From positions 1 to 39,308 of IMG/VR virus record IMGVR_UViG_2541047861_000010: a stretch of DNA of 39,308 bases. One strand, 5' to 3'. This document shows, in pieces, positions 1 through 35,242 of this stretch (the first letter of the stretch is position 1; every line of letters starts with the position of its first letter). This stretch comes from a virus. Lineage: Duplodnaviria > Heunggongvirae > Uroviricota > Caudoviricetes. The notes beneath the pieces were generated by a model, which ran no database searches, was not told the origin of the DNA, and was given only the letters and a program-made list of their open reading frames with translations. A program made the translations under genes and the position numbers.

Positions 1-2109
1 TTACACCATACTGTTAACCTGGCCGGGTAATTCGCTAGCTGGAATACGAAAGGTATACCAGGCATAACGACAGCGTTTCCACAGGCTGGAGAAATGGAGA
101 TGATAAAGGAAATCTGCAATAATTTCGTTATCTGGATATAAAGACTCGGCAAAATGTGTCCAGCGCGCACTGAGTTTCATGTTAAACAGTTTTTCATCTT
201 CTTTGTTACCATACAGGCGCGACAAAGTAATCATTGCTTCGAGCGTACCTTTATTCGCTTCTTCTTGTACCTGTTGGAGGTGCAAATGAGCAAGTGAGAG
301 TTCTTTCACCTCAAAGATATTAAGTAAAAAAAGCCCCCATGCTTTTTCATGTCCAGCTTCATGAGCCAGAAATAAATTGTCAAGGAGATTTTTTTCATAA
401 ATAGCCCGTGTTTCTTTAGAAATTTCTTGTTTATTTAGTGCCTGGTAGCAGATAGCAATGCTAAAATAAATATTTTGTAGATCTTGTTGATGTTCGCTAT
501 AACCATAATTTTTTACCAGTGGATAAGATACCGAGCTATGGAAATTTAGGTCATCTTGAAGTATTTTAAGTGCCCGTCGAAAATACTCCAAAGCTGTAGA
601 TGGTTCATAAGGTAATTTTGTATTGTCTTCCTTATCCAAATATTCAAGAGCAACTAAATTTAATGCGGCAGGAATATTTCTTTGCTTACCAATTGTCGCA
701 AGCGGAATGAAATAATCAGAAAGGTCAAACCAACTCAAATCTTTTATTGCCGACCGCCAATTATGATTGTATTTAATGTCACTAGCTTTTTCCAGCCAAG
801 CATCGCCCTGCCCTTCATCTTTTTCAAAACCCAAAATACCCTCTCGCTGGAAAAACCCCCTATAAATAACAGGTGTAGCATAAGTTGTATTCTGTGAATT
901 TTGGCAGATAAAATTATATATCCAGAATGAATCTGGATAATAACTTAATGCAAATTTTATCGCGTACGCAGTGTAATAATTATTGAGCTTCATGTCTTCC
1001 ATCACCGCTCGCTGTATACAGCACCACAACTTATCGTGATCGTTCTGCTTGTTATAGCAGGCAAGTAACCACTCTAGGGCATTATGGCGACATTCCTGAA
1101 ATTGTGCGTACTGAGCAATATTCTCTGCTAAGTCGATTGCATATTGTTGCTCCTCGGGCGCAATGTCCTCAATGCTGACATCTCGGTAATCATCCCACCA
1201 AAGTAAGAGATCCATATAGTCATGTTCTTCGGTAGATAAGTGCTTACAGGTTACTGAATCCAGCAATTCGGAAATTTCTTTATGCGACCCTCCCCAGCGT
1301 GGCATTCGAAATGGTATATATTCAACAAAAGGATAAAAAGTGTGAGGAAAAATAGTCAGACAAACAGAAAGCCAATATTTTTGCCCACCATCATCATCAT
1401 ACTCAGGAAGTATATTGGGGCGAGGCAAAACGGGGCATATTGCATGCTCAAACGAAAGTCCGGAATACGCCATCAACGCTTCCACTTCTTGCGGGGAGCG
1501 GCGGTGATAATTTTTCAGTGCGATCATTAATGGTATTCCTGCGACACTATCACCGTTAAGGTGTGCCGCCAGCCAGGCTGGCTGACCAAATACTTTTGAG
1601 TTGGTGCTGGTAAGTAATGCAGCCATCCATTGTCGTGGGTCACAATCAATTGCTTTAAGTGTAGCGATGACCATTTGTTCATTACATGCACCAGCACAAA
1701 GCCACATTGCATGTGTGGTATCATTTGCCCAGCCATAACTGCGATATAACCATGCACGGTGATTCCAGTATTGTGCTTCGGCAAGCCAGGCATGTGTAGA
1801 ATGAGGTCTTGCTTGCTGCCAGGTTTTAATGAGTCTTAAACCTTCTGTTCCGGCATCAACTAGCGTGTTCATATCATAAAAATAGTTGCACATTTGGGTC
1901 CAGGATAAAAAATAGCGCTTTTCAGCCTGACGAGAAGTGAAACTCTCCTGTAATACCTGGTTATAAATTTCATCTAGTTCCTGATAACGTTTTTCTTGTA
2001 ACATATAAGGAATATTTGCGATTTGCCATTTTCTCTCAAGAGTATTAAGTGGCATTTTTTGGTCACACATCTTTTGCATTGCACTGAGTAAACGAGCATC
2101 CTGTTCCAT
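1..2109 (-). CDS. Hypothetical cytoplasmic protein, 702 aa, Trp/Tyr-rich; last gene of an AT-rich three-gene operon
   Basis: Full ORF 1-2148; start placed at internal ATG 2107-2109 (MEQDARLL) because AAGGA sits 6 nt upstream and this avoids overlap with the upstream gene. Stop codon is at window bases 1-3. No hydrophobic N-terminus. No family recognised from memory. Confidence 0.6.
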   Translation of the reverse strand: MEQDARLLSAMQKMCDQKMPLNTLERKWQIANIPYMLQEKRYQELDEIYNQVLQESFTSRQAEKRYFLSWTQMCNYFYDMNTLVDAGTEGLRLIKTWQQARPHSTHAWLAEAQYWNHRAWLYRSYGWANDTTHAMWLCAGACNEQMVIATLKAIDCDPRQWMAALLTSTNSKVFGQPAWLAAHLNGDSVAGIPLMIALKNYHRRSPQEVEALMAYSGLSFEHAICPVLPRPNILPEYDDDGGQKYWLSVCLTIFPHTFYPFVEYIPFRMPRWGGSHKEISELLDSVTCKHLSTEEHDYMDLLLWWDDYRDVSIEDIAPEEQQYAIDLAENIAQYAQFQECRHNALEWLLACYNKQNDHDKLWCCIQRAVMEDMKLNNYYTAYAIKFALSYYPDSFWIYNFICQNSQNTTYATPVIYRGFFQREGILGFEKDEGQGDAWLEKASDIKYNHNWRSAIKDLSWFDLSDYFIPLATIGKQRNIPAALNLVALEYLDKEDNTKLPYEPSTALEYFRRALKILQDDLNFHSSVSYPLVKNYGYSEHQQDLQNIYFSIAICYQALNKQEISKETRAIYEKNLLDNLFLAHEAGHEKAWGLFLLNIFEVKELSLAHLHLQQVQEEANKGTLEAMITLSRLYGNKEDEKLFNMKLSARWTHFAESLYPDNEIIADFLYHLHFSSLWKRCRYAWYTFRIPASELPGQVNSMV

Positions 2110-2119
2110 AGATATCCTT

Positions 2120-2836
2120 TTAATTAGGTTCAAAAATTTTAAATTCATTCCACGGCAATTTTTTCCAGTTACTGGATGGATCTTTCAACCATGCAGTGAC
2201 TTCCTTTAAATCACGGTTCGCAGTGGCGACGGGGGTATCGTATATCATTAACCATTTTTGTCGGGCGCGAACATAAGCACTGGCATAATCTTCCCATGAA
2301 GCGAAACAATCTTGTGCTCTTTGAGCATTCAGTAATAACACTATCCAGGCCTGGTTTTCATCGCACCAGCCTAAACCGGCGATGCAACGAGTTAAAAAAG
2401 CAGTGCGCATACAGTCAAACGCCAGCCCATCCAGAACCTGGCCTTGTGCTGCCAGTTGTTCGTAAAAATCATGTGGAGAATTACCAAGCCCTGTAGCCCA
2501 GCGCTGTAATATAACGCCAATTTGTTGACGGAAATCTTCGTTGCTTTGGTAAGTTTCTGTTCCTAGCTCTTGTTTAACCTGTAGTGCAAGTTGTTGACGC
2601 TTATCATCAGTCAACTTTAAATCTAACGTGAAGCCATTTACTGACAGTCCATTACGACGAGCAACTATATCACCAATTGCTAATGCCCACTTACGTCTCT
2701 TTGTTGCTCGTCTTTTGTCCTTGATTAGATCCTTTTCTTTTTCTTTAGCAATAAAAGCATCGATTTGTGGTTTGTTTTTTTTGTATCTATAGATAAAAAT
2801 AAATATTGCGACCAGGAGAACAATGATAAGACTCAT
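2120..2836 (-). CDS. Hypothetical membrane-anchored protein, 238 aa, single N-terminal hydrophobic helix
   Basis: ORF with ATG start; N-terminus SLIIVLLVAIFIFIYRY followed by KKNK looks like a signal anchor. Start overlaps stop of upstream gene (TAATG). Possibly DUF1266-like, unverified. Confidence 0.6.
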   Translation of the reverse strand: MSLIIVLLVAIFIFIYRYKKNKPQIDAFIAKEKEKDLIKDKRRATKRRKWALAIGDIVARRNGLSVNGFTLDLKLTDDKRQQLALQVKQELGTETYQSNEDFRQQIGVILQRWATGLGNSPHDFYEQLAAQGQVLDGLAFDCMRTAFLTRCIAGLGWCDENQAWIVLLLNAQRAQDCFASWEDYASAYVRARQKWLMIYDTPVATANRDLKEVTAWLKDPSSNWKKLPWNEFKIFEPN

Positions 2837-4050
2837 TATTTTTCAACCTCTGACAGGGGTAAGTAATGAGATGTCTGTAATGTCAAACTCTCTATCTCAA
2901 AGGAAATGTTGCTGATATTTTGACCTGCAAATTGCGGATGCCACTCAGCGCCAGGGAATAACATTTCCGCAGAAGTAGCAACTATAGGGTCAATAGCATT
3001 AAGATAATGTAACTTATCAGGTGCGCTGTGTAACAGTAACCACTGCAACTCCACTGAAGGATTTGTAAAATGTTCTAATAAATGAAAGTTATTATGTAGT
3101 ACGCTTAGTAAAAAACTGGTTTCGTATACTTCCGTTACATATTTCCACCCCTGATATTCAGGTGTATTTTCATAAACAATACCCATACCTTCACAATCAC
3201 TATGTCGAACTGCTTGTGGTGATAATAGTTGCAAAAGAGACAAAACATCGTCCGCATATTTTTTAACTGGATGACGATTTTGCTTACCTTTTATTTGATC
3301 AATTTCAAGTGAATCACCAACAACATTGAGAGCAATAGTAACATGAGGAATATTATTATTATCACGCAAACTGAATAACCGTAATTTATGTTGCTCAATT
3401 TGATTTGCATAATACTCACCATAACCACCGGTAAGATTTTTTCGATCATCAAACTGGCCTACGCAATGTTGCATATGCCATGATTCATAAGCCATTTCAC
3501 GACGAAGGTTCGAATGACTGGCATCAAACTCAACAATTTTTCCGTCTGGCACATCAAGTATTGACTTTACAGTATTTTGTTCACTCGGCTGCCACCCTTT
3601 CTCGCGTCGTTGAAGCATCTTTTCATGCTCTTCTTCACGCATTCTGAACGCAACGTAGCAGGTTATGCGCTGTAGTTTTGATTCCAGACGGGTACCACAT
3701 TTCCTGGAAAGAAATTCCACCAACTCCCGTTCTTTGGTTAATATTTGTTGATGATCGGTTTCGATATAATAAAGTGTCGCAGTTGATACTGAGGCAGTAT
3801 TAAACTTCGATACCAGCCATTCCGGGATTACATCATCATTTTTATTAAACAGTGAATATTCTGCAAGCGAGTTAATTTGTTGCACCATTGGAAAGTCACT
3901 AATTAGCCATCGATAAAAATGGTTGAGTAACCATTTTTGGATGGTCTCATTATCCTGGCGAAACAGACTTCTTTGCAAAATTGCTGTTTTTACTTCCGGG
4001 GCATTAATTACATCCCTTGCATTATAATTCTGGTGAATATTTCCAGTCAT
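2836..4050 (-). CDS. Hypothetical protein, 404 aa; first gene of AT-rich three-gene operon
   Basis: ORF with ATG start at 4048-4050. Hand-counted GC of a 60-nt sample in this island is about 32 percent, versus about 60 percent in a prophage structural-gene sample (23161-23220). No confident domain assignment. Confidence 0.6.
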   Translation of the reverse strand: MTGNIHQNYNARDVINAPEVKTAILQRSLFRQDNETIQKWLLNHFYRWLISDFPMVQQINSLAEYSLFNKNDDVIPEWLVSKFNTASVSTATLYYIETDHQQILTKERELVEFLSRKCGTRLESKLQRITCYVAFRMREEEHEKMLQRREKGWQPSEQNTVKSILDVPDGKIVEFDASHSNLRREMAYESWHMQHCVGQFDDRKNLTGGYGEYYANQIEQHKLRLFSLRDNNNIPHVTIALNVVGDSLEIDQIKGKQNRHPVKKYADDVLSLLQLLSPQAVRHSDCEGMGIVYENTPEYQGWKYVTEVYETSFLLSVLHNNFHLLEHFTNPSVELQWLLLHSAPDKLHYLNAIDPIVATSAEMLFPGAEWHPQFAGQNISNISFEIESLTLQTSHYLPLSEVEK

Positions 4051-4537: not shown

Positions 4538-5899
4538 ATGTTTAAACCGGAACTCCTTTCCCCGGCGGGAACGCTGAAAAATATGCGTTACGCTTTCGCT
4601 TATGGCGCAGATGCTGTTTATGCGGGCCAGCCGCGTTACTCCCTGCGTGTACGCAACAACGAATTCAACCACGAAAATCTTCAGCTCGGCATCAATGAAG
4701 CCCACGCGCTGGGGAAAAAGTTTTATGTCGTGGTCAACATTGCACCGCACAACGCCAAGCTGAAAACCTTTATCCGTGACCTGAAACCGGTGGTGGAAAT
4801 GGGGCCGGATGCGCTGATTATGTCCGATCCAGGGCTGATTATGCTGGTGCGTGAACACTTCCCGGAAATGCCAATCCACCTCTCGGTACAGGCTAACGCC
4901 GTAAACTGGGCGACGGTGAAATTCTGGCAGCAAATGGGTCTGACCCGCGTGATCCTCTCTCGCGAACTGTCACTGGAAGAGATTGAAGAGATCCGCAATC
5001 AGGTGCCGGATATGGAGATCGAAATCTTCGTTCACGGCGCGCTGTGCATGGCCTACTCCGGTCGCTGCCTGCTCTCTGGCTATATCAACAAGCGCGACCC
5101 GAACCAGGGCACCTGCACCAACGCCTGCCGCTGGGAGTACAATGTCCAGGAAGGGAAAGAAGATGACGTCGGCAACATCGTACACAAGTACGAGCCGATT
5201 CCGGTGCAAAATGTTGAGCCGACGCTGGGTATCGGCGCGCCAACCGACAAAGTGTTTATGATCGAAGAAGCCCAGCGTCCGGGCGAGTATATGACCGCGT
5301 TTGAAGATGAGCACGGCACTTACATCATGAACTCGAAAGATCTGCGCGCCATCGCCCATGTTGAACGCCTGACCAAAATGGGCGTGCATTCGCTGAAAAT
5401 CGAAGGCCGTACCAAATCTTTCTACTATTGCGCACGCACCGCGCAGGTTTACCGTAAAGCTATCGATGACGCCGCTGCGGGCAAACCGTTCGATACCAGC
5501 CTGCTGGAAACGCTGGAAGGTCTGGCGCATCGTGGCTATACCGAAGGTTTCCTGCGTCGTCATACCCACGACGATTATCAGAACTACGAATACGGTTATT
5601 CGGTTTCTGACCGCCAGCAGTTTGTTGGTGAGTTTACCGGTGAGCGCAAGGGGGAGCTCGCGGCGGTAGCGGTGAAAAATAAATTCTCCGTTGGCGACAG
5701 CCTTGAGCTGATGACGCCGCAAGGCAACATTAACTTTACCCTTGAGCATATGGAAAACGCCAAAGGTGAAGCGATGCCGGTCGCACCAGGCGATGGTTAT
5801 ACTGTGTGGCTCCCGGTGCCGCAGGATCTTGAGCTAAATTACGCGCTGCTGATGCGTAATTTCTCCGGGGAAACCACGCGTAACCCCCACGGTAAGTGA
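4538..5899 (+). CDS. yegQ: Peptidase U32-family protein YegQ (tRNA hydroxylation protein TrhP)
   Basis: 453-aa translation beginning MFKPELLSPAGTLKNMRYAFAYGADAVYAGQPRYSLRVRNNEF matches my recollection of E. coli YegQ in length and sequence; followed by cyaR as in E. coli K-12. Confidence 0.9.
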   Translation: MFKPELLSPAGTLKNMRYAFAYGADAVYAGQPRYSLRVRNNEFNHENLQLGINEAHALGKKFYVVVNIAPHNAKLKTFIRDLKPVVEMGPDALIMSDPGLIMLVREHFPEMPIHLSVQANAVNWATVKFWQQMGLTRVILSRELSLEEIEEIRNQVPDMEIEIFVHGALCMAYSGRCLLSGYINKRDPNQGTCTNACRWEYNVQEGKEDDVGNIVHKYEPIPVQNVEPTLGIGAPTDKVFMIEEAQRPGEYMTAFEDEHGTYIMNSKDLRAIAHVERLTKMGVHSLKIEGRTKSFYYCARTAQVYRKAIDDAAAGKPFDTSLLETLEGLAHRGYTEGFLRRHTHDDYQNYEYGYSVSDRQQFVGEFTGERKGELAAVAVKNKFSVGDSLELMTPQGNINFTLEHMENAKGEAMPVAPGDGYTVWLPVPQDLELNYALLMRNFSGETTRNPHGK

Positions 5900-17660: not shown

Positions 17661-18008
17661 TCAACTCACAGGGATGGTTAACGAAAGTGGCTGGCCGGTG
17701 TCGTTGTGCTGGCCGGTTAACGTAACTGTCATTCGCCCGTCAAAGCTGCGCGCCGTGGTGACGGATGACAGGGTGACGCGGGGTTCCCATTTCAGCACCG
17801 CCATGTAACAGGCGACCTTAATCTGCAACTCAAGCGCCGGGGTCTGCGGCTGGTCAATCATTGACGCCAGCAACGAGCCGTAATCACGCCGCATCACCCG
17901 TGAGCCGACCGGTGTGCGCAGGATATCGCCGATACTCTGGCTGATATGCTCAAGGTCAGTGACAGTCAGGCCATCACTGCGATTCATTCCGAGATAACGC
18001 GCTGTCAT
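17661..18008 (-). CDS. W: Baseplate protein gpW (115 aa)
   Basis: Length and synteny match P2 W. Confidence 0.9.
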   Translation of the reverse strand: MTARYLGMNRSDGLTVTDLEHISQSIGDILRTPVGSRVMRRDYGSLLASMIDQPQTPALELQIKVACYMAVLKWEPRVTLSSVTTARSFDGRMTVTLTGQHNDTGQPLSLTIPVS

Positions 18009-18646
18009 TTTGTCCCCTGTGTCCAGTTGTCTCCTGACTTAACACCACCGTGACCGTGGTCATCCACCTGAACGCCGTTAGACGTGAATTTCCCGTCGGT
18101 ATGCTCGATGTTGCCGTGCATCTTCCCGCCCTTCTGCACTTCCAGCGTGCCGGTAGTCAGTTTGTTAGTGCAGACCACTTCCGGTGTGTCCAGGGTGATG
18201 CGGGTTGACGCTTTCACCATGACCACCGGCACCGTGGCAGTAACAGAATCAGAAGCCGTCACGCTGGCCGTTTTAATTCCGCTTACCGTGAGTGCACTGG
18301 TTTCAGGTTCATACTCAATCACCGCCCCGTCAGGGAAACGGATATGCAGGGCATCCGCCGACGCAGACGGCGCGGGGTTATCGCCGGAATAAATCCCCGG
18401 CAGAACGAACGCCGTGTCGAGTTCACCGCCCACGGCCAGAATCAGCACCTGTTCCCCCACGGAAGGTGCCCACCATGTGCGCGAACGCCCGGCACGATGG
18501 GTCAGCCACTGAAGCCAGTCGGTGCACATGCCGCCGGTCTGCACACGGCAGCGACCGGCGTTAAGGTCGGTTTCGACGACAAGACCGGTGCGGATCATAT
18601 TGCGCAGTGCGCGCGCGAGTTCCTGGATATTTGATAGTGTGCTCAT
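18005..18646 (-). CDS. V: Baseplate spike protein gpV (213 aa)
   Basis: Start set at MSTLSNIQELARALRNMIRTG... by recalled similarity to the P2 V N-terminus; the longer upstream extension in the ORF track has no RBS. Confidence 0.85.
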   Translation of the reverse strand: MSTLSNIQELARALRNMIRTGLVVETDLNAGRCRVQTGGMCTDWLQWLTHRAGRSRTWWAPSVGEQVLILAVGGELDTAFVLPGIYSGDNPAPSASADALHIRFPDGAVIEYEPETSALTVSGIKTASVTASDSVTATVPVVMVKASTRITLDTPEVVCTNKLTTGTLEVQKGGKMHGNIEHTDGKFTSNGVQVDDHGHGGVKSGDNWTQGTK

Positions 18647-18692
18647 ATGACAATAATGGGGAACATATGCTCGAAAAACTATTGCAACCCGT

Positions 18693-18710
18693 TGTATCAT
18701 TTTCGGCACA
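18693..18710. promoter_or_regulatory. Candidate Ogr-box dyad TGT-N12-ACA in the V/moron divergent intergenic region
   Basis: TGTATCATTTTCGGCACA read directly; it has the recalled P2 late-promoter dyad form. Its spacing to the V start does not fit the canonical -55 position, so the assignment is tentative. Confidence 0.3.
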
Positions 18711-18729
18711 ACCAAGAAGGAGCCGAAGC

Positions 18730-19473
18730 ATGGATAAATATCAAATCTGGGAAAAACAAAAAGACACCATCGCCCATAAAGAATATTTAAAAATTTCCGA
18801 CACCAATTTACTTGGACATATACACATTGCCAATTATGAGGTGATTCAAAGTGAATTAAGCAAATTCAACTCTCCTGAAATTGTACTCCACTACTCACTT
18901 AATAGAAATGAATTAAAAAAAGAGAGCATAAATATATCAAGACATTTTCTCAACTATATCTCCTCAGCATTATCACTTAGAGATTCAACTCGAAATCTAC
19001 ATAAAATTAATGTGTTAAATATTGATAACATTACCAATAAATCCAGAGAAATCATCAATGAAGAATTTTTAAAAAATCCAATCATCAAATTAATGGAGGA
19101 TTTAAGAAACATCCTAACCCATCAAAAAATGATCTCCCCATTAATATCATCATTTATGCACCTCCAGAAAAAAATAAACATACACGGATTTGCATTTAAG
19201 ATTGAAACCATACTGGAGAATGACCGACTTTCTGGTAAATCAAAAGAATACCTGAAGTCAACAGAACAAAAAAATTTATTCATCTTGCCGATAATAGAGG
19301 AATACCAATACACAACTCTTAAATACCAGCACTGGCTTTTAGCTTGTATCCACAATGCTCATCAAAATACATACCCAGAATACTGGGAAGCAAGAAAAAA
19401 CATAATGGACGTCTGGGGTGGAGATATCCAACTAATACCTGAAGAGAGTGCCCTCACTTATTTGACCAGATAA
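18730..19473 (+). CDS. Hypothetical protein (247 aa), AT-rich moron at the P2 orf30 position between V and S
   Basis: ATG at 18730 with AAGGAG 10 nt upstream; hand-counted GC of a 60-nt sample is about 22 percent; opposite strand to all flanking tail genes. No recognisable domain. Confidence 0.7.
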   Translation: MDKYQIWEKQKDTIAHKEYLKISDTNLLGHIHIANYEVIQSELSKFNSPEIVLHYSLNRNELKKESINISRHFLNYISSALSLRDSTRNLHKINVLNIDNITNKSREIINEEFLKNPIIKLMEDLRNILTHQKMISPLISSFMHLQKKINIHGFAFKIETILENDRLSGKSKEYLKSTEQKNLFILPIIEEYQYTTLKYQHWLLACIHNAHQNTYPEYWEARKNIMDVWGGDIQLIPEESALTYLTR

Positions 19474-26059: not shown

Positions 26060-27832
26060 ATGACCATCACCACAGACACCACTCTTTTACACGACCCGCG
26101 TCGTCAGGCGGCGCTGCTGTACTGGCAGGGATTTTCCGTGCCGCAGATTGCCGCCATGTTGCAGATGAAACGCCCGACGGTGCAGAGCTGGAAACAGCGC
26201 GACGGCTGGGACAGTGTTGCCCCCATCAGCCGTGTCGAAATGAGTCTGGAAGCGCGGCTGACCCAGCTCATCATCAAACCGCAGAAAACCGGCGGTGACT
26301 TCAAGGAAATTGACCTGCTCGGACGCCAGATTGAACGACTGGCACGGGTAAACCGCTACAGCCAGACCGGCAACGAGGCAGACCTTAATCCGAACATCGC
26401 TAACCGCAACAAAGGCGGGCGTCGCAAACCGAAAAAGAATTTTTTCAGTGACGAGGCCATCGAAAAGCTGGAGCAGATTTTCTTTGAGCAGTCTTTCGAA
26501 TATCAGTTGCACTGGTATCGCGCCGGGCTTGAGCACCGCATCCGCGATATCCTGAAATCCCGCCAGATTGGCGCGACGTTTTATTTTTCCCGCGAGGCGC
26601 TGCTGCGCGCCCTGAAAACCGGTCATAACCAGATTTTTCTGTCGGCCAGTAAAACGCAGGCGTATGTGTTCCGCGAATACATCATCGCCTTTGCCCGGCT
26701 GGTTGACGTTGACCTGACCGGTGACCCGATTGTCCTGGGCAATAACGGCGCAAAACTGATTTTTCTCGGCACCAACTCCAACACCGCACAGAGCCATAAC
26801 GGCGACCTGTACGTCGATGAGATTTTCTGGATCCCGAATTTTCAGGTACTGCGTAAGGTGGCATCAGGTATGGCCTCACAGAGTCACCTGCGCTCGACCT
26901 ATTTCTCCACCCCGTCCACGCTGGCGCACGACGCCTACCCGTTCTGGTCGGGTGAACTGTTCAACCGGGGACGCGCCAGCGCCGCCGAACGCGTGGAAAT
27001 CGACGTCAGTCATAACGCCCTTGCCGGTGGGCTTCTCTGTGCGGACGGCCAGTGGCGGCAGATTGTCACCATTGAGGACGCGCTGAAAGGCGGCTGCACA
27101 TTGTTCGACATTGAGCAGCTTAAACGTGAAAACAGCGCCGACGATTTTAAAAACCTGTTCATGTGTGAATTTGTTGACGACAAGGCGTCGGTGTTCCCGT
27201 TCGAGGAGCTGCAACGCTGCATGGTCGACACGCTGGAAGAATGGGAAGACTATGCGCCGTTTGCCGCGAATCCGTTCGGCTCCCGCCCGGTATGGATTGG
27301 TTACGACCCGTCACACCGTGGCGACAGTGCCGGATGCGTGGTGCTGGCACCGCCGGTGGTGGCCGGTGGCAAATTCAGAATACTTGAGCGTCACCAGTGG
27401 AAAGGCATGGACTTTGCCACTCAGGCTGAATCCATCCGCAAACTCACCGAAAAATACAACGTCGAATACATCGGTATTGATGCCACCGGCCTCGGTGTCG
27501 GCGTGTTCCAGCTCGTGCGCTCGTTCTATCCCGCCGCGCGCGACATCCGCTACACGCCGGAAATGAAAACCGCAATGGTGCTCAAGGCAAAAGACGTTAT
27601 CCGCCGTGGCTGTCTGGAATATGACGTCAGCGCCACCGACATCACCAGCTCGTTTATGGCTATCCGCAAGACCATGACCAGCAGCGGACGCAGTGCCACC
27701 TATGAGGCCAGCCGCAGCGAGGAAGCCAGCCACGCCGACCTCGCCTGGGCGACCATGCACGCCCTGTTAAATGAGCCACTCACCGCCGGTATCAGCACCC
27801 CGCTGACATCCACCATTCTGGAGTTTTACTGA
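26060..27832 (+). CDS. P: Terminase large subunit (ATPase/endonuclease) gpP (590 aa)
   Basis: Start at MTITTDTTLLHDPRRQAALLYWQGF (GAGG 7 nt upstream) matches P2 P; stop overlaps Q start (TGATG). Confidence 0.9.
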   Translation: MTITTDTTLLHDPRRQAALLYWQGFSVPQIAAMLQMKRPTVQSWKQRDGWDSVAPISRVEMSLEARLTQLIIKPQKTGGDFKEIDLLGRQIERLARVNRYSQTGNEADLNPNIANRNKGGRRKPKKNFFSDEAIEKLEQIFFEQSFEYQLHWYRAGLEHRIRDILKSRQIGATFYFSREALLRALKTGHNQIFLSASKTQAYVFREYIIAFARLVDVDLTGDPIVLGNNGAKLIFLGTNSNTAQSHNGDLYVDEIFWIPNFQVLRKVASGMASQSHLRSTYFSTPSTLAHDAYPFWSGELFNRGRASAAERVEIDVSHNALAGGLLCADGQWRQIVTIEDALKGGCTLFDIEQLKRENSADDFKNLFMCEFVDDKASVFPFEELQRCMVDTLEEWEDYAPFAANPFGSRPVWIGYDPSHRGDSAGCVVLAPPVVAGGKFRILERHQWKGMDFATQAESIRKLTEKYNVEYIGIDATGLGVGVFQLVRSFYPAARDIRYTPEMKTAMVLKAKDVIRRGCLEYDVSATDITSSFMAIRKTMTSSGRSATYEASRSEEASHADLAWATMHALLNEPLTAGISTPLTSTILEFY

Positions 27833-28866
27833 TGAGCAAGAAAAAAGGGAAAACACCGCAACCTGCGGCAAAAAAAATGACCGCCAGCGCCCCGAAAATG
27901 GAGGCATTCACCTTTGGTGAGCCGGTGCCGGTACTCGACCGCCGTGACATTCTGGATTACGTCGAGTGCATCAGTAACGGCAGATGGTATGAGCCGCCGG
28001 TCAGCTTTACCGGTCTGGCAAAAAGCCTGCGTGCTGCCGTGCATCACAGCTCGCCGATTTACGTTAAACGCAATATTCTGGCCTCGACATTTATCCCGCA
28101 TCCGTGGCTTTCACAGCAGAATTTCAGCCGCTTTGTGCTGGACTTTCTGGTGTTCGGTAATGCGTTTCTGGAAAAGCGTTACAGCACCACCGGCAAGGTC
28201 ATCAGACTGGAAACCTCACCGGCAAAATATACCCGCCGTGGTGTGGAGGAGGATGTTTACTGGTGGGTGCCTTCCTTCAACGAGCCGACAGCCTTCGCAC
28301 CTGGCTCCGTGTTTCATCTGCTGGAGCCGGATATTAATCAGGAGCTGTACGGCCTGCCGGAATATCTCAGCGCCCTTAACTCTGCCTGGCTGAATGAGTC
28401 GGCCACGCTGTTCCGCCGCAAGTATTACGAAAACGGCGCACATGCCGGATACATCATGTATATCACCGACGCATTGCAGGACCGCGATTACATTGACTCA
28501 CTTCGCGAAAACATGGCCAGGTCGAAAGGCCGCAATAACTTTAATAATCTGTTTCTCTATGCACCGCAGGGAAAGCCAGACGGCATCAAAATTATCCCGC
28601 TCAGTGAAGTGGCGACAAAGGACGATTTTTTTAATATCAAAAAATCCAGCGCCGCTGACCTGCTGGACGCGCACCGCATCCCCTTTCAGTTGATGGGCGG
28701 CAAGCCGGAGAACGTCGGGTCGCTGGGCGATATTGAGAAAGTGGCAAAGGTCTTTGTCCGCAATGAGCTTATCCCGTTACAGGACAGGATTCGGGAAATA
28801 AACGGCTGGCTCGGTCAGGAGGTCATCCGCTTTAAAAACTACTCACTGGACACTGACAACGGCTGA
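27832..28866 (+). CDS. Q: Portal protein gpQ (344 aa)
   Basis: 344 aa; P2 Q length and position next to cos. Confidence 0.9.
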   Translation: MSKKKGKTPQPAAKKMTASAPKMEAFTFGEPVPVLDRRDILDYVECISNGRWYEPPVSFTGLAKSLRAAVHHSSPIYVKRNILASTFIPHPWLSQQNFSRFVLDFLVFGNAFLEKRYSTTGKVIRLETSPAKYTRRGVEEDVYWWVPSFNEPTAFAPGSVFHLLEPDINQELYGLPEYLSALNSAWLNESATLFRRKYYENGAHAGYIMYITDALQDRDYIDSLRENMARSKGRNNFNNLFLYAPQGKPDGIKIIPLSEVATKDDFFNIKKSSAADLLDAHRIPFQLMGGKPENVGSLGDIEKVAKVFVRNELIPLQDRIREINGWLGQEVIRFKNYSLDTDNG

Positions 28867-29182: not shown

Positions 29183-30250
29183 TCATTTCTTAGCTTTCAC
29201 AACCGGATGCGCGCGATCATGTCCACCGCCACGATGCTTAGAAAATATAACCTTTTCATTAGTAAAAGGTTTTTGGCCATAGACACTATCATAGTGGAAA
29301 AAGACGTTCGGAAGATGAGGCACACGGATGAATCCATACTTCACTCTAGTATCACCGATGACCCCAAAAACCCTTGTACTTACTGGGTAGCATAGTTCAC
29401 CACAACGCATCACTAATTCATCTGCTGTTGGGCGTTCAGAAGGTTCCAATTTTAAACAATCTTCTATAAGTTTAATTATTTCATTTGCCAATGGCGCATA
29501 CTGTCTATTTGAAAATATAAAGTCAGGGTAAGGAACATGCGTGCCAGAAAGTATTTTTGGTATAGCCATATAACCAATACCAAAAGGGTATTTTCCAGTA
29601 AGAATCCTGAACATCATCGCACCCAATGCCCAAATATCTGTAGGTTTCGAAACCTTACCTTGACTCTGTATGATTTCCGGTGCCATATATGGCAAAGCCC
29701 CGATAGCCGTTTGCGAAGAACTAATTGAATCTTGACCATTTCTTGCAGCCTCATCAATTTCATCTCCGGCCATCTTTGAAATGCCGAAATCCGTAATTTT
29801 TATCTCTGTAGCATTGATACCACCGCCTACCATTATATTTGAAGGTTTGAGGTCCCGGTGTATGACGTCAACATGATGCGAAGCAGACAGAGCTTTAGCT
29901 AAATTATGAAATATTTTAGCAGTTAAATATGGATCAACACTTGAATAAGTGTCTAAAATAGCCTTATCCAAGTCAACTCCATCAATAAATTCCTCCGTTA
30001 AAAACTCTCTACCCTCATCATCAATGAAGTAATCTAAGGTTTTAGCCACATTAGGATGATTAACCCTTGATGCTAATATTGCACTTCTATGAAACCTTTT
30101 TTCAGCAGATTTATTTTTGGGAGTTTTGAGAGCCACATGCCTCGAGAGAATATTATCCATTGCCAAATAAACTTTTTGCATACCGCCTTCACCAATCTCC
30201 CTCAATATTGTATATCTGCTAACTTGAATTCCTGGAGTCAGATTTATCAT
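29183..30250 (-). CDS. Hanks-type Ser/Thr protein kinase with C-terminal cold-shock-like (OB-fold) domain (355 aa)
   Basis: Kinase motifs present: G-loop GEGGMQKV, VALK lysine, HRDLKPSN, DFG, APE. C-terminal 60 aa (VFGVIGDTRVKYGFIRVPHLPNVFFHYDSVYG...EKVIF) aligns by eye to the CspA pattern. AT-rich; start overlaps upstream stop (ATGA). Confidence 0.85.
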   Translation of the reverse strand: MINLTPGIQVSRYTILREIGEGGMQKVYLAMDNILSRHVALKTPKNKSAEKRFHRSAILASRVNHPNVAKTLDYFIDDEGREFLTEEFIDGVDLDKAILDTYSSVDPYLTAKIFHNLAKALSASHHVDVIHRDLKPSNIMVGGGINATEIKITDFGISKMAGDEIDEAARNGQDSISSSQTAIGALPYMAPEIIQSQGKVSKPTDIWALGAMMFRILTGKYPFGIGYMAIPKILSGTHVPYPDFIFSNRQYAPLANEIIKLIEDCLKLEPSERPTADELVMRCGELCYPVSTRVFGVIGDTRVKYGFIRVPHLPNVFFHYDSVYGQKPFTNEKVIFSKHRGGGHDRAHPVVKAKK

Positions 30251-31311
30251 AACACCACCTCCGGATGGGAAAGGTCAAATGTAATGAAGACCCGCTCTTT
30301 TCTTGGCCGAGAAGTCTCTCCCAGAATAATAACACATGAATCAGGCAAAATATTATATTGCTTTGCAGCTATATTATTCACATACACCTCACCACTTAAA
30401 CTCGATATATAAAACTCTGAACCAGAATATTTCACCTCAATAGTCCCGACCCCTGAATTATTAAAAGCCGCAGATTTATTTGTTGAAGAAATGATGACGG
30501 GTGGAGTGTTATCAGAGATTAACAATGCTCTATGAGAGTTGTAGAGAACGAATTTTTTTAGAGTCTGACACACATCAGCCATATCAGGTCTCTCACAAGG
30601 ATTCGTATCTAAACATTGGAAAAGCAATTCTTTTACCTGAGTTGGTAACTGTATATTAGAATTATCAAAAGGATTAGACAATAATTTTTTGGGTAAAACT
30701 CTCATTTCCGGTGGTAGTGGGGTCTTAGCCAAAAACATGGCCGTTACAGCAAAAGCATATGTATCTATGGATTTTGTAAACGCTACTTGATGTAAAAATA
30801 ATTCAGGTGCAGCATATGTTGGGGTTCCTTTAAAACCTATTGTATTAGCTTCATCAACATTTCTAGATAGTCCGAAGTCATAAATCTTCACTACTCCCTC
30901 AGAATCAATTTTCATGTTCCCAGGCTTGATATCCCTATGAATAATATCATGAGAATGTATCTCAGAAATACCCGAAGATATTTGCCACAAAATTTTAATC
31001 AGATCTTCAGAATTTAATATGCGATCCTCTACTTCCAATAATGAAGGTCCGTCAACATACTCTTCGACTATAGCAATTCCTTTACCTTGATAATTAATAA
31101 CATCATAAAGCTCTACTACATGTTTTGATCTTAATTTCATCAATGCTGATAACTCATCCATCATTCGAGGAGAATCATCAGGATTACTTATGGACTTTAT
31201 AGCGACAAATCTTTCGAGGTGAGTATCCAAGCATTTGATCACGCAACCAAATCCTCCCGAAGCCTCTTCTTCAGTCCTCTTATATCTTGCAGGGAGAGTA
31301 AAATTAGTCAT
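30247..31311 (-). CDS. Hanks-type Ser/Thr protein kinase with C-terminal FHA-like domain (354 aa)
   Basis: Kinase motifs present: GGFGCV, VAIK, HRDIKPGN, DFG, APE. C-terminal segment (SSLSGEVYVNNIAAKQYNILPDSCVIILGE) resembles the FHA signature. RBS AAGGAG 7 nt upstream. Confidence 0.85.
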   Translation of the reverse strand: MTNFTLPARYKRTEEEASGGFGCVIKCLDTHLERFVAIKSISNPDDSPRMMDELSALMKLRSKHVVELYDVINYQGKGIAIVEEYVDGPSLLEVEDRILNSEDLIKILWQISSGISEIHSHDIIHRDIKPGNMKIDSEGVVKIYDFGLSRNVDEANTIGFKGTPTYAAPELFLHQVAFTKSIDTYAFAVTAMFLAKTPLPPEMRVLPKKLLSNPFDNSNIQLPTQVKELLFQCLDTNPCERPDMADVCQTLKKFVLYNSHRALLISDNTPPVIISSTNKSAAFNNSGVGTIEVKYSGSEFYISSLSGEVYVNNIAAKQYNILPDSCVIILGETSRPRKERVFITFDLSHPEVVL

Positions 31312-32470
31312 CTTTATCTCCTTTAGTGGAGTTTTTCTCAGAGAATGAAATATCTAACTGTGAAATATTATCTAACTTATCATTATTGTTAGCTTCGATA
31401 ACATTCCTTCCCTCATCACTCTTTATATTACTATTTTTTTTCTTTGTACGTGATTTCCTTTTCGATACATTTTTTTTGTTAGAAATTTCATTACTGCATT
31501 CTAACTCAGTAACTTTTCTATCAATAACATTTTCAACCGTAGCTGAGTTAGGTATATCTAACGGCGCAGGTTGCACGCTAATTACTTTCATCTCACCAAA
31601 AGGATCCCATAAATTAATTACATCCCCAGATGATACATCCAAAGCACTTAGGATGTTCGAAATCTCAACTACCGCAATCGACGCATTATCAAATCCACCA
31701 AACCAACTAGCTAGATCTATAACTCTTTTAGCGAACACTCCAGTATTATTGGAGTGAGCATATAATTTTCTCAAATTATTACTGTCAATGGTATGAGCAC
31801 CATCTGAAGTTAATGCAACCACCCCAGGTACGAGCCGAATATCGTGAAAATGTATCTCAAGAACACCATCAAGACCTATAAACTGTACTAACTCGCCACC
31901 TAACCTAGAATCAATAACACCTGAGTCACTACCAAGATGCTCATTATATTTCTTTGCCAATACAGCTAATGTATCATCCTCACTAATTTGTTTTATGTGT
32001 TCAGCATTAATGGAATATATGCGACTATCCCCGACATTTATTGCTGTAATGTTATCGGAGTCATCTACAGCTAAGGCAGATAACGTAGCCCCACCGTTCC
32101 CATTATATACTTTCAAAACCGATTCATTTGCTTTTAAAACGGCGATTTCAAGACATTGTCTAATTGGCAAGCCTGAGTGTTTAATTATCTCGGTAAAAAA
32201 AGATGATACGGTCAATGAAGCAGCATTCGCTCCCCCTTCCATCCCCCCCATACCATCTGCTAAAGCGATGACAATCATGTCCTTATTCTTACTAAAAGGA
32301 CGAAATTTTAATACAGCTACCCGGTCTTGGTTCTCTTTCCTAACTAAACCTATGTCTGTAGCAATAGCTGCAGGTAGCATAGATACTCTTCGTACAGATG
32401 AAGAGATATTTTTTCTATGCAGCCAAGCGTGTATCTGTTCATGAAGGATCTCGTAAGAGTCTCGACTCAC
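31304..32470 (-). CDS. PP2C-family Ser/Thr protein phosphatase with Lys-rich disordered C-terminal tail (388 aa)
   Basis: PP2C motifs ALADGMGG, VGDSR and TSDG read in the translation. GTG start with GAGGAGG 4 nt upstream; 3' end overlaps the downstream kinase start by 8 nt (ATGACTAA). Confidence 0.8.
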   Translation of the reverse strand: MSRDSYEILHEQIHAWLHRKNISSSVRRVSMLPAAIATDIGLVRKENQDRVAVLKFRPFSKNKDMIVIALADGMGGMEGGANAASLTVSSFFTEIIKHSGLPIRQCLEIAVLKANESVLKVYNGNGGATLSALAVDDSDNITAINVGDSRIYSINAEHIKQISEDDTLAVLAKKYNEHLGSDSGVIDSRLGGELVQFIGLDGVLEIHFHDIRLVPGVVALTSDGAHTIDSNNLRKLYAHSNNTGVFAKRVIDLASWFGGFDNASIAVVEISNILSALDVSSGDVINLWDPFGEMKVISVQPAPLDIPNSATVENVIDRKVTELECSNEISNKKNVSKRKSRTKKKNSNIKSDEGRNVIEANNNDKLDNISQLDISFSEKNSTKGDKDD

Positions 32471-32691: not shown

Positions 32692-34977
32692 CTATATACA
32701 TCGTTGATTTATTGGAAGCCCCGGCCACTCATCAACAACCGGATATGTAAATTTTTTCTCGCCATATGCCACCCTCGCACCTCGTGCTAGTACATCCAGC
32801 TCCCACCGTTCCGGCGTGATGCCATGCTGTGCGAGGTCAAACCGGATACGCGATATCTGGTCGCGCTGCGATTTAGTCAGCCTTGCCGATGGCGCAATTT
32901 CATTAGGTTTTAACGGGCCTCCGTTTCTCTGCTGACGATTTGGTGTTCTCAGGCCGTGTTTTAATGCGCCCCTGAGCGCCCTCACTACATCCGGGTCATT
33001 CCATTCGATAACACCTTCATCAACCAGATTAAGTACTGCTGCGGCGTGCTCAGAAGGTGTGGGAGCCGGTAACGAAGTATCACCACCAGTGAGCTTTCCA
33101 CAGTTATTGACAGGACTCCGAGGCGCGGCGATGCCGCTTTTTAAAGTCAAAGGCTCAACGACCGGAACTTTCGGCACAATGCGCCAGTCCGTCGTTCTGG
33201 TGATATGAATATGACGCGCGCCGAGATGCGGCGCGTAAATGCCGACCACCCTCTCGACCTCTTCCTCGTACTCGTTAACGTCATCCGACGGGCTACGGGC
33301 GACTCTGACAGTCTGACAATCGCGCGGGACATTTGCCCCACCCTGCGCGCTGATATACAACGCAAAATCACCACTGTCTGCGGCGGCGCGTGCAGCCTCG
33401 ACGCGCTCGTCAAACTCATCAGCAATGCTGACGCCGCGCGGCAATTTGCGTAGTTCACGGTAAGCCCCCATTGTCGGCAGACCAACCGTTTTAAATTGCG
33501 GGATGCGCCACGTTGACGCCCATGCGGTAACAGCCGCAGCAGTGTCTTTCAGCGGCCTGCCGGTATCGTTATCGAGCTGACCATCCAGTGCATAGCCGTC
33601 GATGTTTTTTGAGATGTATTTCGCGATATACCCCGCAGCACCGCCCCGGTTAAGGTGTTTTGCCTGAAAACGGTTTCGCGCGGCTCCTCTTTCATCGCCA
33701 TCCTCTTTGAGCGCATAGCGACGCATGATTTCGATAATCTGGTTACGCTGGCGCGGATTACAAAAAAGCATCATATGCCAGTGCGGCGTTCCGTCGTGGT
33801 GTGGCTCGACGACACGCAAACCGTAGACCTGTAAATCATTATCCTTGAATGCCGTGCGCATCAGGCTCCAGATACGGCAGAGATAACGCTGCGCATCCTT
33901 TGGATTAAATGCCTCATCGTTCCAGCCGTGATTTAGCTGGACGGTTTTACTTTCGCCTTTTCTGACCTGACGTGTCGGGTGATACTTTGACGGCGCGGTC
34001 AGCGTGATAAACATCCCCACATCACCCTCTGCTGCGGCGTAACGCTCAATACCGGCAATGGTGTTCATCAGCTCCATCCGGCGAATTTCAGGATTAGAAA
34101 TACTGCCCATCACCTTACTGATAAGGTCGATGCGCTCGCCGGTTTCCCTGTTTTCGAGATCACACGATTTAAGAAATTCCAGATTTGCCTGGCGGCGTGC
34201 ACGCACATCACGAATGGCATGTTTACTGGCATAAGGAGAACGGTCTTTATTGACCTCCCCGACAGCAATCAGTAACGCCTCATGCCAGCGCATACGCTGG
34301 CCTTTAAGCTGATGGGTCCACCACTCATCGTTAAACAGACGGGCAATGGCAGAATATGCCTGCCTCGTGGTCATCTGCCCTTTACGGTATTTTTTCCAGT
34401 AGAGCGGGGAAATATTGAAAGCACGTGCAGCACCAGCAACATGACCATAGAGGTGAGCCTGCGCCTCATCCGTAAACAGCGATTCTTTTTCGCCATGCGC
34501 ATCCCCCCAGGCATCGCAGAGTTCCTCATACATCATGAAAAGCTGCGATGAGATACGGGCGGCAAACTTTTTCAGCTCCTTGTCATTCATCCCCGGCAGA
34601 CGCGCATAATGGTCACGCTCTGCCAGAAACAGCAACGACGCGTCGGTGTTCATTTCATGGCGCTGATTCACACGCTCAATGCGCGGCCATAAACGACGCT
34701 GAAAAGTGGATGTGAGAAAATAAAACCCGTGCACCGGGCTTTTATTGCGCCGGATGTAGTCATAGCGTGACGTAAACAGCGAGCGCAAAAAGTAAGGCAG
34801 GCGGTTAATCGTGGATAAAACACCTTGCACCTGACGCATCTCGTCACGTGTAAGGGGTCTTTCGCGCCCGACAGCCTCGCGTGGCGCGTTCCATGCATAA
34901 GCACCGGTAAACGCCTTACCGGTGCCTGCGGCAAATGCTGACGGAGGGACAAAACGCCCGGAGGCTTTAACGGCCAT
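32692..34977 (-). CDS. A: Replication initiation endonuclease gpA (761 aa)
   Basis: Start set at MAVKASGRFVPPSAFAAGTGK to match the recalled P2 A N-terminus and length; sequence closely resembles P2 A. Confidence 0.9.
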   Translation of the reverse strand: MAVKASGRFVPPSAFAAGTGKAFTGAYAWNAPREAVGRERPLTRDEMRQVQGVLSTINRLPYFLRSLFTSRYDYIRRNKSPVHGFYFLTSTFQRRLWPRIERVNQRHEMNTDASLLFLAERDHYARLPGMNDKELKKFAARISSQLFMMYEELCDAWGDAHGEKESLFTDEAQAHLYGHVAGAARAFNISPLYWKKYRKGQMTTRQAYSAIARLFNDEWWTHQLKGQRMRWHEALLIAVGEVNKDRSPYASKHAIRDVRARRQANLEFLKSCDLENRETGERIDLISKVMGSISNPEIRRMELMNTIAGIERYAAAEGDVGMFITLTAPSKYHPTRQVRKGESKTVQLNHGWNDEAFNPKDAQRYLCRIWSLMRTAFKDNDLQVYGLRVVEPHHDGTPHWHMMLFCNPRQRNQIIEIMRRYALKEDGDERGAARNRFQAKHLNRGGAAGYIAKYISKNIDGYALDGQLDNDTGRPLKDTAAAVTAWASTWRIPQFKTVGLPTMGAYRELRKLPRGVSIADEFDERVEAARAAADSGDFALYISAQGGANVPRDCQTVRVARSPSDDVNEYEEEVERVVGIYAPHLGARHIHITRTTDWRIVPKVPVVEPLTLKSGIAAPRSPVNNCGKLTGGDTSLPAPTPSEHAAAVLNLVDEGVIEWNDPDVVRALRGALKHGLRTPNRQQRNGGPLKPNEIAPSARLTKSQRDQISRIRFDLAQHGITPERWELDVLARGARVAYGEKKFTYPVVDEWPGLPINQRCI

Positions 34978-35242
34978 ATGAGCCAAAAGCCTCTGAACAA
35001 CGCTTGCTGAGTTGCTCAACCTGCACGTTTAAATCAGCAAAAGACTTTGCGCTTCCGGTCAGAATATCGTGATGCATCAGGCCGGAAACGAGCTGGCTTA
35101 ATTTCGGGTAATAACCAACCACCGACAGCCATTCCTGACCGGCGTTTTTACCGCTTTCCGCTCTCTTTTTCTCGTGGAGAATAAACTGAAAGCTGTCACT
35201 GGTAACGACATAACGTTCGCCAATTTCAATACGAATACTCAT
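34967..35242 (-). CDS. P2 orf83-like early protein (91 aa)
   Basis: Position between orf82 and A; ATGA overlap with orf82 stop. Confidence 0.7.
   Translation of the reverse strand: MSIRIEIGERYVVTSDSFQFILHEKKRAESGKNAGQEWLSVVGYYPKLSQLVSGLMHHDILTGSAKSFADLNVQVEQLSKRCSEAFGSYGR

Follow-up and report, generated by a model that had tools for sequence, protein, structure and literature searches.

The window analysed here is the whole 39,308-nucleotide (nt) stretch of the IMG/VR virus record IMGVR_UViG_2541047861_000010 (Caudoviricetes; positions 1 to 39,308), which is 100% identical to Escherichia coli chromosomes. It carries a cassette of three genes, all on the minus strand, which encode a PP2C phosphatase (31304..32470; 388 aa), a first Ser/Thr kinase that we call kinase 1 (30247..31311; 354 codons plus stop) and a second one, kinase 2 (29183..30250; 355 aa). 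The genes are 1167, 1065 and 1068 bp long, respectively; the stop of the PP2C gene overlaps the start of kinase 1 by 8 nt, and the ATG of kinase 2 overlaps the TGA of kinase 1 as ATGA (4 nt). The cassette is near certainly a KKP (kinase-kinase-phosphatase) module, a toxin-antitoxin and anti-phage system described by Guo et al. (Nat Commun 2024, PMC11341870; preprint 2022). The subject of this analysis is the C-terminal tail of kinase 1, in which an initial annotation, made from the sequence alone, had seen a divergent FHA-like domain that might bind phosphothreonine (pThr).

Kinase 1 starts with a Hanks-type protein kinase domain (residues 1-255; 30547..31311, minus strand), which was delimited with Pfam and an AlphaFold2 (AF2) model. 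The Pfam Pkinase match covers residues 18-249 with an E-value of 1.7e-42, and the Gly-rich loop, the VAIK Lys, the alphaC Glu, HRD, the catalytic Asn, DFG and APE are all found. In 61 homologues, the catalytic set is invariant (G19-G20, K39, E53, H125-R126-D127, N132, D145-F146-G147 and P169-E170), while A168 is at least 90% conserved; T157 in the activation loop is invariant too. The full-length AF2 model has a mean predicted local distance difference test score (pLDDT) of 91 and a predicted template modelling score (pTM) of 0.88. The kinase domain had been said to run to about residue 260, which is right because the last kinase helix of the model spans residues 244-255 and the tail opens with a strand from residue 262 onwards. 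The open reading frame (ORF) and the two strings quoted as FHA-like were also found as described, the latter at residues 303-313 and 321-332.

Kinase 2 is a PfkA-type Ser/Thr kinase, which shares 52% identity with PfkA_MP over the full length (E 1e-119). Its C-terminus forms a CSD/S1-like OB fold (residues ~290-352; 29186-29383, minus strand), for which Pfam gives sub-cut-off matches: when the tail was searched alone, CSD was hit at E 0.002 and S1-like at E 0.004. The sequence YGFI, an instance of the GFI/A motif of PfkA, lies at residues 305-308, and in 65 homologues (loci L008-L079) G306, F307 and I308 are conserved at 0.98, 0.88 and 0.68. In the same set, R293, G306-F307, F317, S322, Y324-G325, G341, R346 and P349 of the CSD-like tail are conserved, and four threonines are invariant (T43, T71, T153 and T181 of the activation loop) besides S179, which is kept in 98%.

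The third gene, directly upstream of kinase 1 as in KKP, encodes the PfpC-type antitoxin. It matches Pfam PP2C_2 (PF13672) with 26.7 bits against a cut-off of 24, the NCBIfam Stp1-type PP2C model with E 1.5e-29, which is under the cut-off of that model, and phrog_17277 with E 2e-194; it is annotated as a PP2C family phosphatase in RefSeq, and no PADLOC model matches it. The protein ends in a low-complexity tail rich in K, N and S, which takes up about the last 60 residues (31304-31480; ...NKKNVSKRKSRTKKKNSNIKSDEGRN...DKDD). For PfpC, a follow-up KKP paper (among PMC12328805 and PMC13048266) reports that the C-terminus is disordered over about 44 aa and that this stretch is clipped off while the antitoxin function is kept.

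The assignment to KKP rests on gene content, gene order and direct similarity to the published proteins. In KKP, pfpC encodes the PP2C phosphatase, pfkB a kinase described as having an "FHA domain, PF00498", and pfkA a kinase that carries a CSD and the GFI/A motif; the module was searched for as adjacent, co-oriented genes for PP2C, kinase and kinase of 900-1300 bp each (PMC11341870), a rule that the window cassette follows. Using the PfkB and PfkA sequences of Supplementary Table 6 of that paper, we found that kinase 1 shares 44% identity with PfkB of the Pf6 prophage in Pseudomonas aeruginosa MPAO1 (BLASTP, residues 5-354, E 2e-91), and that the tail aligns with PfkB to the last residue, including ...FITFDLSHPE. 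Gene order, gene sizes and the position as prophage cargo are the same as in the KKP modules of P. aeruginosa MPAO1 Pf6, E. coli 15EC039, Salmonella, Shewanella and Vibrio. Over 90% of the reported KKP clusters, which number more than 1200, lie in prophages that include P2, P4, Mu-like and Pf6-like ones; E. coli is among the hosts, and its P2 prophages are named as carriers (PMC11341870). The combination of a kinase-FHA protein, a partner with a CSD and a PP2C phosphatase has thus already been published as KKP, and its recognition in this window is a rediscovery.

The same layout was recovered when the tail alone was used as the query. In this way, 72 genome loci were found, in taxa that extend from Proteobacteria to Cyanobacteria, Verrucomicrobia and Planctomycetes. 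All 71 of them with available sequence have a second kinase immediately downstream, and a PP2C gene lies upstream in 61 of 64; three more loci, which were inspected singly, show the same PP2C-kinase-kinase order. A few loci deviate. No PP2C was found by tblastn at L040, L053 and L079, and the ORF of the first kinase is longer (398-683 aa) at L040, L043, L045 and L070; these six loci may represent fusions, decayed copies or start-codon artefacts.

Several other identities were considered for the cassette. The PADLOC and NCBIfam models of kinase-based defence systems match both kinases of the window, but the matches (PADLOC Mad6, PD-T4-6, MkoA and PglW; NCBIfam PknB, MAD6 and PglW) cover the kinase domain only and lie far under the NCBIfam cut-offs, and they were rejected. 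Stk2 of Staphylococcus, PD-T4-6, MADS Mad6, Mokosh MkoA and BREX PglW share with KKP a Hanks-type kinase domain that serves in defence against phages, but they have neither the PP2C-kinase-kinase triad nor the PfkB tail. The TerY-P triad was also rejected, since the cassette contains no vWA/TerY gene and has no PADLOC match to it. Besides, we asked whether the window allele is the tested KKP_EC039 and rejected this. The pfpC_EC039 primers (Supplementary Table 13 of PMC11341870) encode the same N-terminal SRDSYE as the window, with other codons, and a C-terminus of ...GDGDDE versus ...GDKDD in the window; the window allele is therefore related to KKP_EC039, not the same. Primer strings derived from the window are absent from the supplement of that paper, and MCM8848564 is not listed among the cluster members. 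Compared with the KKP of P. aeruginosa Pf6, the window holds another allele in another host and phage, in which T261 and T319 of PfkB_MP are replaced by I265 and D324.

The last ~95 residues of kinase 1 form a separate, strongly conserved all-beta domain. The predicted structure is a beta-sandwich of the FHA type (residues 260-347; 30271..30534, minus strand) with 8 strands by DSSP (about 10 when short bridges are included), in which the canonical beta3-beta4-beta5 excursion is missing. According to this model, the tail is a genuine but stripped-down FHA fold, so that structure prediction, one of the checks proposed with the initial annotation, came out in favour of FHA. The tail is kept in more than 2000 homologues of equal length. 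Its conserved residues are H260, Y295, G297, F300, G307, N312, N313, C326, G331, R340 and D346; in 84 diverse representatives, conservation is 100% at Y295, N312, R340 and P350 and 96-98% at H260, G307 and S348.

Two short motifs carry what is left of an FHA signature. The first, SSLSGEVYVNN (residues 303-313; 30373..30405, minus strand), corresponds in a local hhalign alignment to beta7 of FHA together with the beta6-beta7 loop ("S-x-N-G-T-x-V-N-G"), where the loop Asn is replaced by Ser306. In the 84 representatives, G307 is conserved at 98% and N312 at 100%, while position 306 is variable (S 0.32, T 0.20, E 0.13). The second, ILPDSCVIILGE (residues 321-332; 30316..30351, minus strand), was aligned by hhalign to FHA beta9-beta10 ("L-x-x-G-D-x-I-x-l-G"), and conservation there is 0.71 for P323, 0.87 for C326, 0.94 for V327 and 0.93 for G331. 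These are the two strings that had been placed on FHA positions by eye: the local alignment puts them where they had been guessed, but it is not significant, with a probability of 3%. What the family retains of the FHA signature is its C-terminal half (G307, N312 and LPxSCVIxLG). Features of its own are Y295, R340, H260, with which the domain begins, and a C-terminus of the form D-x-S-H-P-E-V-V-L. The loop that corresponds to beta10-beta11 of FHA is enlarged and contains the invariant R340. The extreme C-terminus S-H-P-E-V-V-L (residues 348-354; 30250..30270, minus strand) is conserved family-wide (S348 0.96, P350 1.00, E351 0.88), and PfkB_MP ends in ...FITFDLSHPEINL. The confidence of the model drops there, to a mean pLDDT of 64-70 over the last residues.

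The sequence searches gave a different picture from the fold. The Pfam hidden Markov model (HMM) PF00498, the profile proposed as another check, has no match at E<=10 in the window protein, its tail, 55 homologous tails or PfkB of P. aeruginosa, i.e. in 57 family members, and no other Pfam family matches the 104-residue tail or the 55 homologous tails at the same threshold. The profile of the tail found no FHA protein among 177,635 PDB sequences (E<=10). As a control, GarA alone finds 29 PDB sequences, all of which are FHA-domain proteins, and a reference FHA alignment of eight sequences (A3) recovers 66 FHA sequences. Of the eight sequences of A3, GarA was verified to be identical to PDB 2kfu, and the other seven were checked only indirectly, as the profile recovered their PDB entries at 81-110 bits along with further FHA sequences (66 in total, E<=0.001). 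When the tail family was compared by hhalign with A3, the probability was only 3%, and with GarA alone there was no match; Foldseek against viral structures (BFVD) returned noise only. The tail profile has 280 matches in 1.84 billion representative proteins. Among the 150 listed of these, the alignment reaches the C-terminus and the proteins have about 350 aa or are shorter fragments.

The published label "FHA (PF00498)" of PfkB could not be reproduced with the Pfam HMM, and its derivation by the authors was not found. RefSeq, NCBIfam and PADLOC v2 label kinase 1 just as a Ser/Thr kinase. Since PfkB, the window protein and the 55 homologous tails lack a PF00498 match, counts of kinase-FHA fusions that are based on Pfam miss this family, and annotation pipelines and domain-based censuses of such fusions will overlook it.

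In canonical FHA domains, the pThr-binding residues are a Gly-Arg that follows beta3, a Ser-x-x-His ahead of beta5 and the Asn of the beta6-beta7 loop. In A3 these residues are invariant columns, while the tail has no conserved counterpart of any of them. In the model, just three strands precede the equivalent of FHA beta5, one fewer than in canonical FHA domains (PF00498; Rad53 FHA1, Chk2, and GarA and FhaA of Mycobacterium tuberculosis), and by residue counts on a forced alignment, the segment between beta3 and beta5, where beta4 and the two phosphate-binding loops would lie, is ~14-18 residues shorter than its GarA counterpart. At residues 263-294, no Arg, Ser or His is conserved in the 84 representatives, and in both hhalign alignments, the local one and the forced global one, none of the invariant G, R, S and H of FHA falls on a conserved residue of the tail; the enlarged beta10-beta11 loop with its invariant Arg is a further difference. 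Judged from these sequence comparisons, the tail is unlikely to be a canonical pThr reader. The earlier reading as a pThr module is thus partly supported as a whole: the FHA fold is predicted, but the canonical pThr residues (G-R, S-x-x-H and loop N) have no conserved counterparts.

The phosphorylation sites reported for KKP do not supply an obvious ligand either. T34, S37 and T271 of PfkA and T261 and T319 of PfkB were reported (PMC11341870); all lie on variable columns, with N33, S36 and S271 in kinase 2 and I265 and D324 in kinase 1 as the counterparts in the window, and they are therefore not a conserved FHA ligand. We found no data on binding of pThr peptides by the PfkB tail in the KKP papers examined, and the follow-up papers PMC12328805 and PMC13048266 are silent on the FHA domain.

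The published experiments point to another role for the tail. PfkA and PfkB are toxic only jointly and are neutralised by the phosphatase, toxicity is lost when the "FHA" of PfkB or the CSD of PfkA is truncated, and His-FHA co-purifies with CSD-Flag (PMC11341870). In the same paper, E. coli gains protection against T4 and T-odd phages from four heterologous KKP modules, one of which comes from E. coli 15EC039, and Gp59 of T4 binds and inhibits PfpC. By analogy with these modules, from which toxicity, neutralisation and defence are carried over to the window allele, the PP2C protein (PfpC) would restrain both Hanks-type kinases; when a phage protein inhibits or destabilises PfpC, the kinase pair would phosphorylate many essential host proteins, and growth and phage production would be arrested. 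The tail of kinase 1 would bind the CSD/OB-fold tail of kinase 2, and both kinases would thereby become jointly active. We therefore read kinase 1 as the pfkB-type kinase of KKP and its tail as most likely a heterodimerisation and activation module, not a canonical pThr reader, with a probability of roughly 0.7. The binding may be phospho-independent or use a non-canonical mode; for phospho-independence, the odds lie somewhere between roughly even and two to one. In kinases such as Chk2, Rad53, Dun1 and Mek1, the FHA domain precedes the kinase domain and is a true pThr reader, whereas in kinase 1 it is C-terminal and degenerate, and its reported partner is the OB fold (CSD) of a second kinase. 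It is about an even bet that the PfkB tail is a distinct, Pfam-invisible FHA subfamily which has lost the beta3-beta4-beta5 excursion and clamps an OB fold (CSD) without phosphate, or through a basic site at R340, the FHA-OB contact being the switch for joint activity. What stays of interest beyond the published system is this degenerate FHA fold with its unusual OB-fold partner.

Three other explanations were weighed. One is that no real domain exists and the FHA-like strings arose by chance in a disordered or linker tail. It would fit the fact that no sequence-based method detects FHA (the hhalign probability being 3%), but it was rejected and can be practically discounted, as it is refuted by the fold predictions together with the conservation of the tail in the 84 representatives. 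A second explanation places the tail mainly in cis, where it would pack on the C-lobe of its own kinase in a structural or autoregulatory role, so that loss of the tail would leave the kinase misfolded or misregulated. The pTM of 0.88 for the two-domain model suggests a fixed arrangement of the domains; H260, Y295, N312/N313, D346, S348 and P350 would lie near the kinase linker end of the sandwich, going by FHA topology, from which the surface placement of all conserved residues was derived; and the tail was never seen apart from a kinase among the 150 matches listed of 280. Against this stands the pull-down in which the isolated tail bound the isolated CSD in trans (PMC11341870). A role in cis is compatible with heterodimerisation and does not exclude it, but as the main function we consider it improbable, slightly more so than phosphate reading.

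That third explanation is unlikely. It holds that the tail is a functional phospho-reader, possibly through a non-canonical site, whose pThr, for instance one in an activation loop, would be provided by the partner kinase, the phosphatase or the protein itself, and that the kinase pair thereby becomes a self-reinforcing phospho-relay. The predicted fold is that of FHA, and the published papers call the domain a phosphopeptide interaction motif; phosphorylation of each kinase requires both kinases, and both are phosphorylated in vivo (PMC11341870). About half of the family members have S or T at position 306, R340 is the same in all of them, S348-H349 is conserved, and both kinases have an invariant Thr in the activation loop. 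On the other side, all residues that define pThr binding lack a conserved counterpart and PF00498 is absent from the 57 family members, while the reported pThr sites are not conserved, two of them being Asn and Ser in the window, which a pThr-specific pocket would not read. Several other FHA-fold domains that lack the pThr residues work without phosphate, among them those of YscD/PscD in the type III secretion system (T3SS) and EssC in the type VII secretion system (T7SS), which are also present in the fold match lists. The secretion-system domains show no sequence relationship to the tail, and are membrane-anchored parts of secretion systems, while the KKP kinases are soluble. Several points nevertheless weigh against heterodimerisation by a tail that is no canonical reader. 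The absence of the phosphate loops was deduced from strand counting, conservation and non-significant alignments. The invariant R340 and the frequent Ser/Thr306 could form a non-canonical phosphate site, and T157 of kinase 1 and T181 of kinase 2 could serve as ligands; with these threonines and R340, a phospho-dependent contact of a non-canonical kind is therefore possible. The pull-down used proteins expressed in E. coli, and no phosphatase control was found for it (PMC11341870). Furthermore, the allele of the window differs from the experimentally tested KKP_EC039. For KKP, it should not be assumed that an FHA label means a phospho-dependent interaction, which bears on how the mutual activation of the kinases is understood.

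The cassette is a rare insertion in a common background. It lies between the P2-type portal gene gpQ (27832..28866, plus strand; RefSeq, with an identical locus in E. coli FY26), which forms the left border of the cargo hotspot, and the P2-type replication endonuclease gene gpA (32692..35019, minus strand; RefSeq), which forms the right border, and thus within a P2-like prophage. The gpQ-gpA interval is a documented defence hotspot of P2-like phages and holds old and tin in P2 (PMC9122126). Among 5426 complete E. coli genomes, the cassette is found in 14 and the flanks in more than 2100, and the GC content is 0.36 in the cassette versus about 0.5 in the flanks.

Two other regions of the window were noted. 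A low-GC block at 1-4050 (minus strand; 0.39-0.41 versus ~0.5-0.58 elsewhere) contains three co-directional, overlapping ORFs, namely a DUF4034 ORF (715 aa; it may continue beyond position 1 of the window), a DUF1266 ORF (238 aa) and a PcfJ-like ORF (404 aa). None of the three has a PADLOC match. The block is not part of the prophage, from which a peptidase U32 gene (4538-5899) separates it. Besides, a 288-aa ORF at 18607-19473 (plus strand), which has no Pfam or PADLOC match, runs against the P2 tail genes around it, borders on the spike gene V (18005-18715) and lies in a local GC dip (0.45). In P2-like phages, the variable "orf30" locus lies at this position, so that the ORF may be a second cargo gene.

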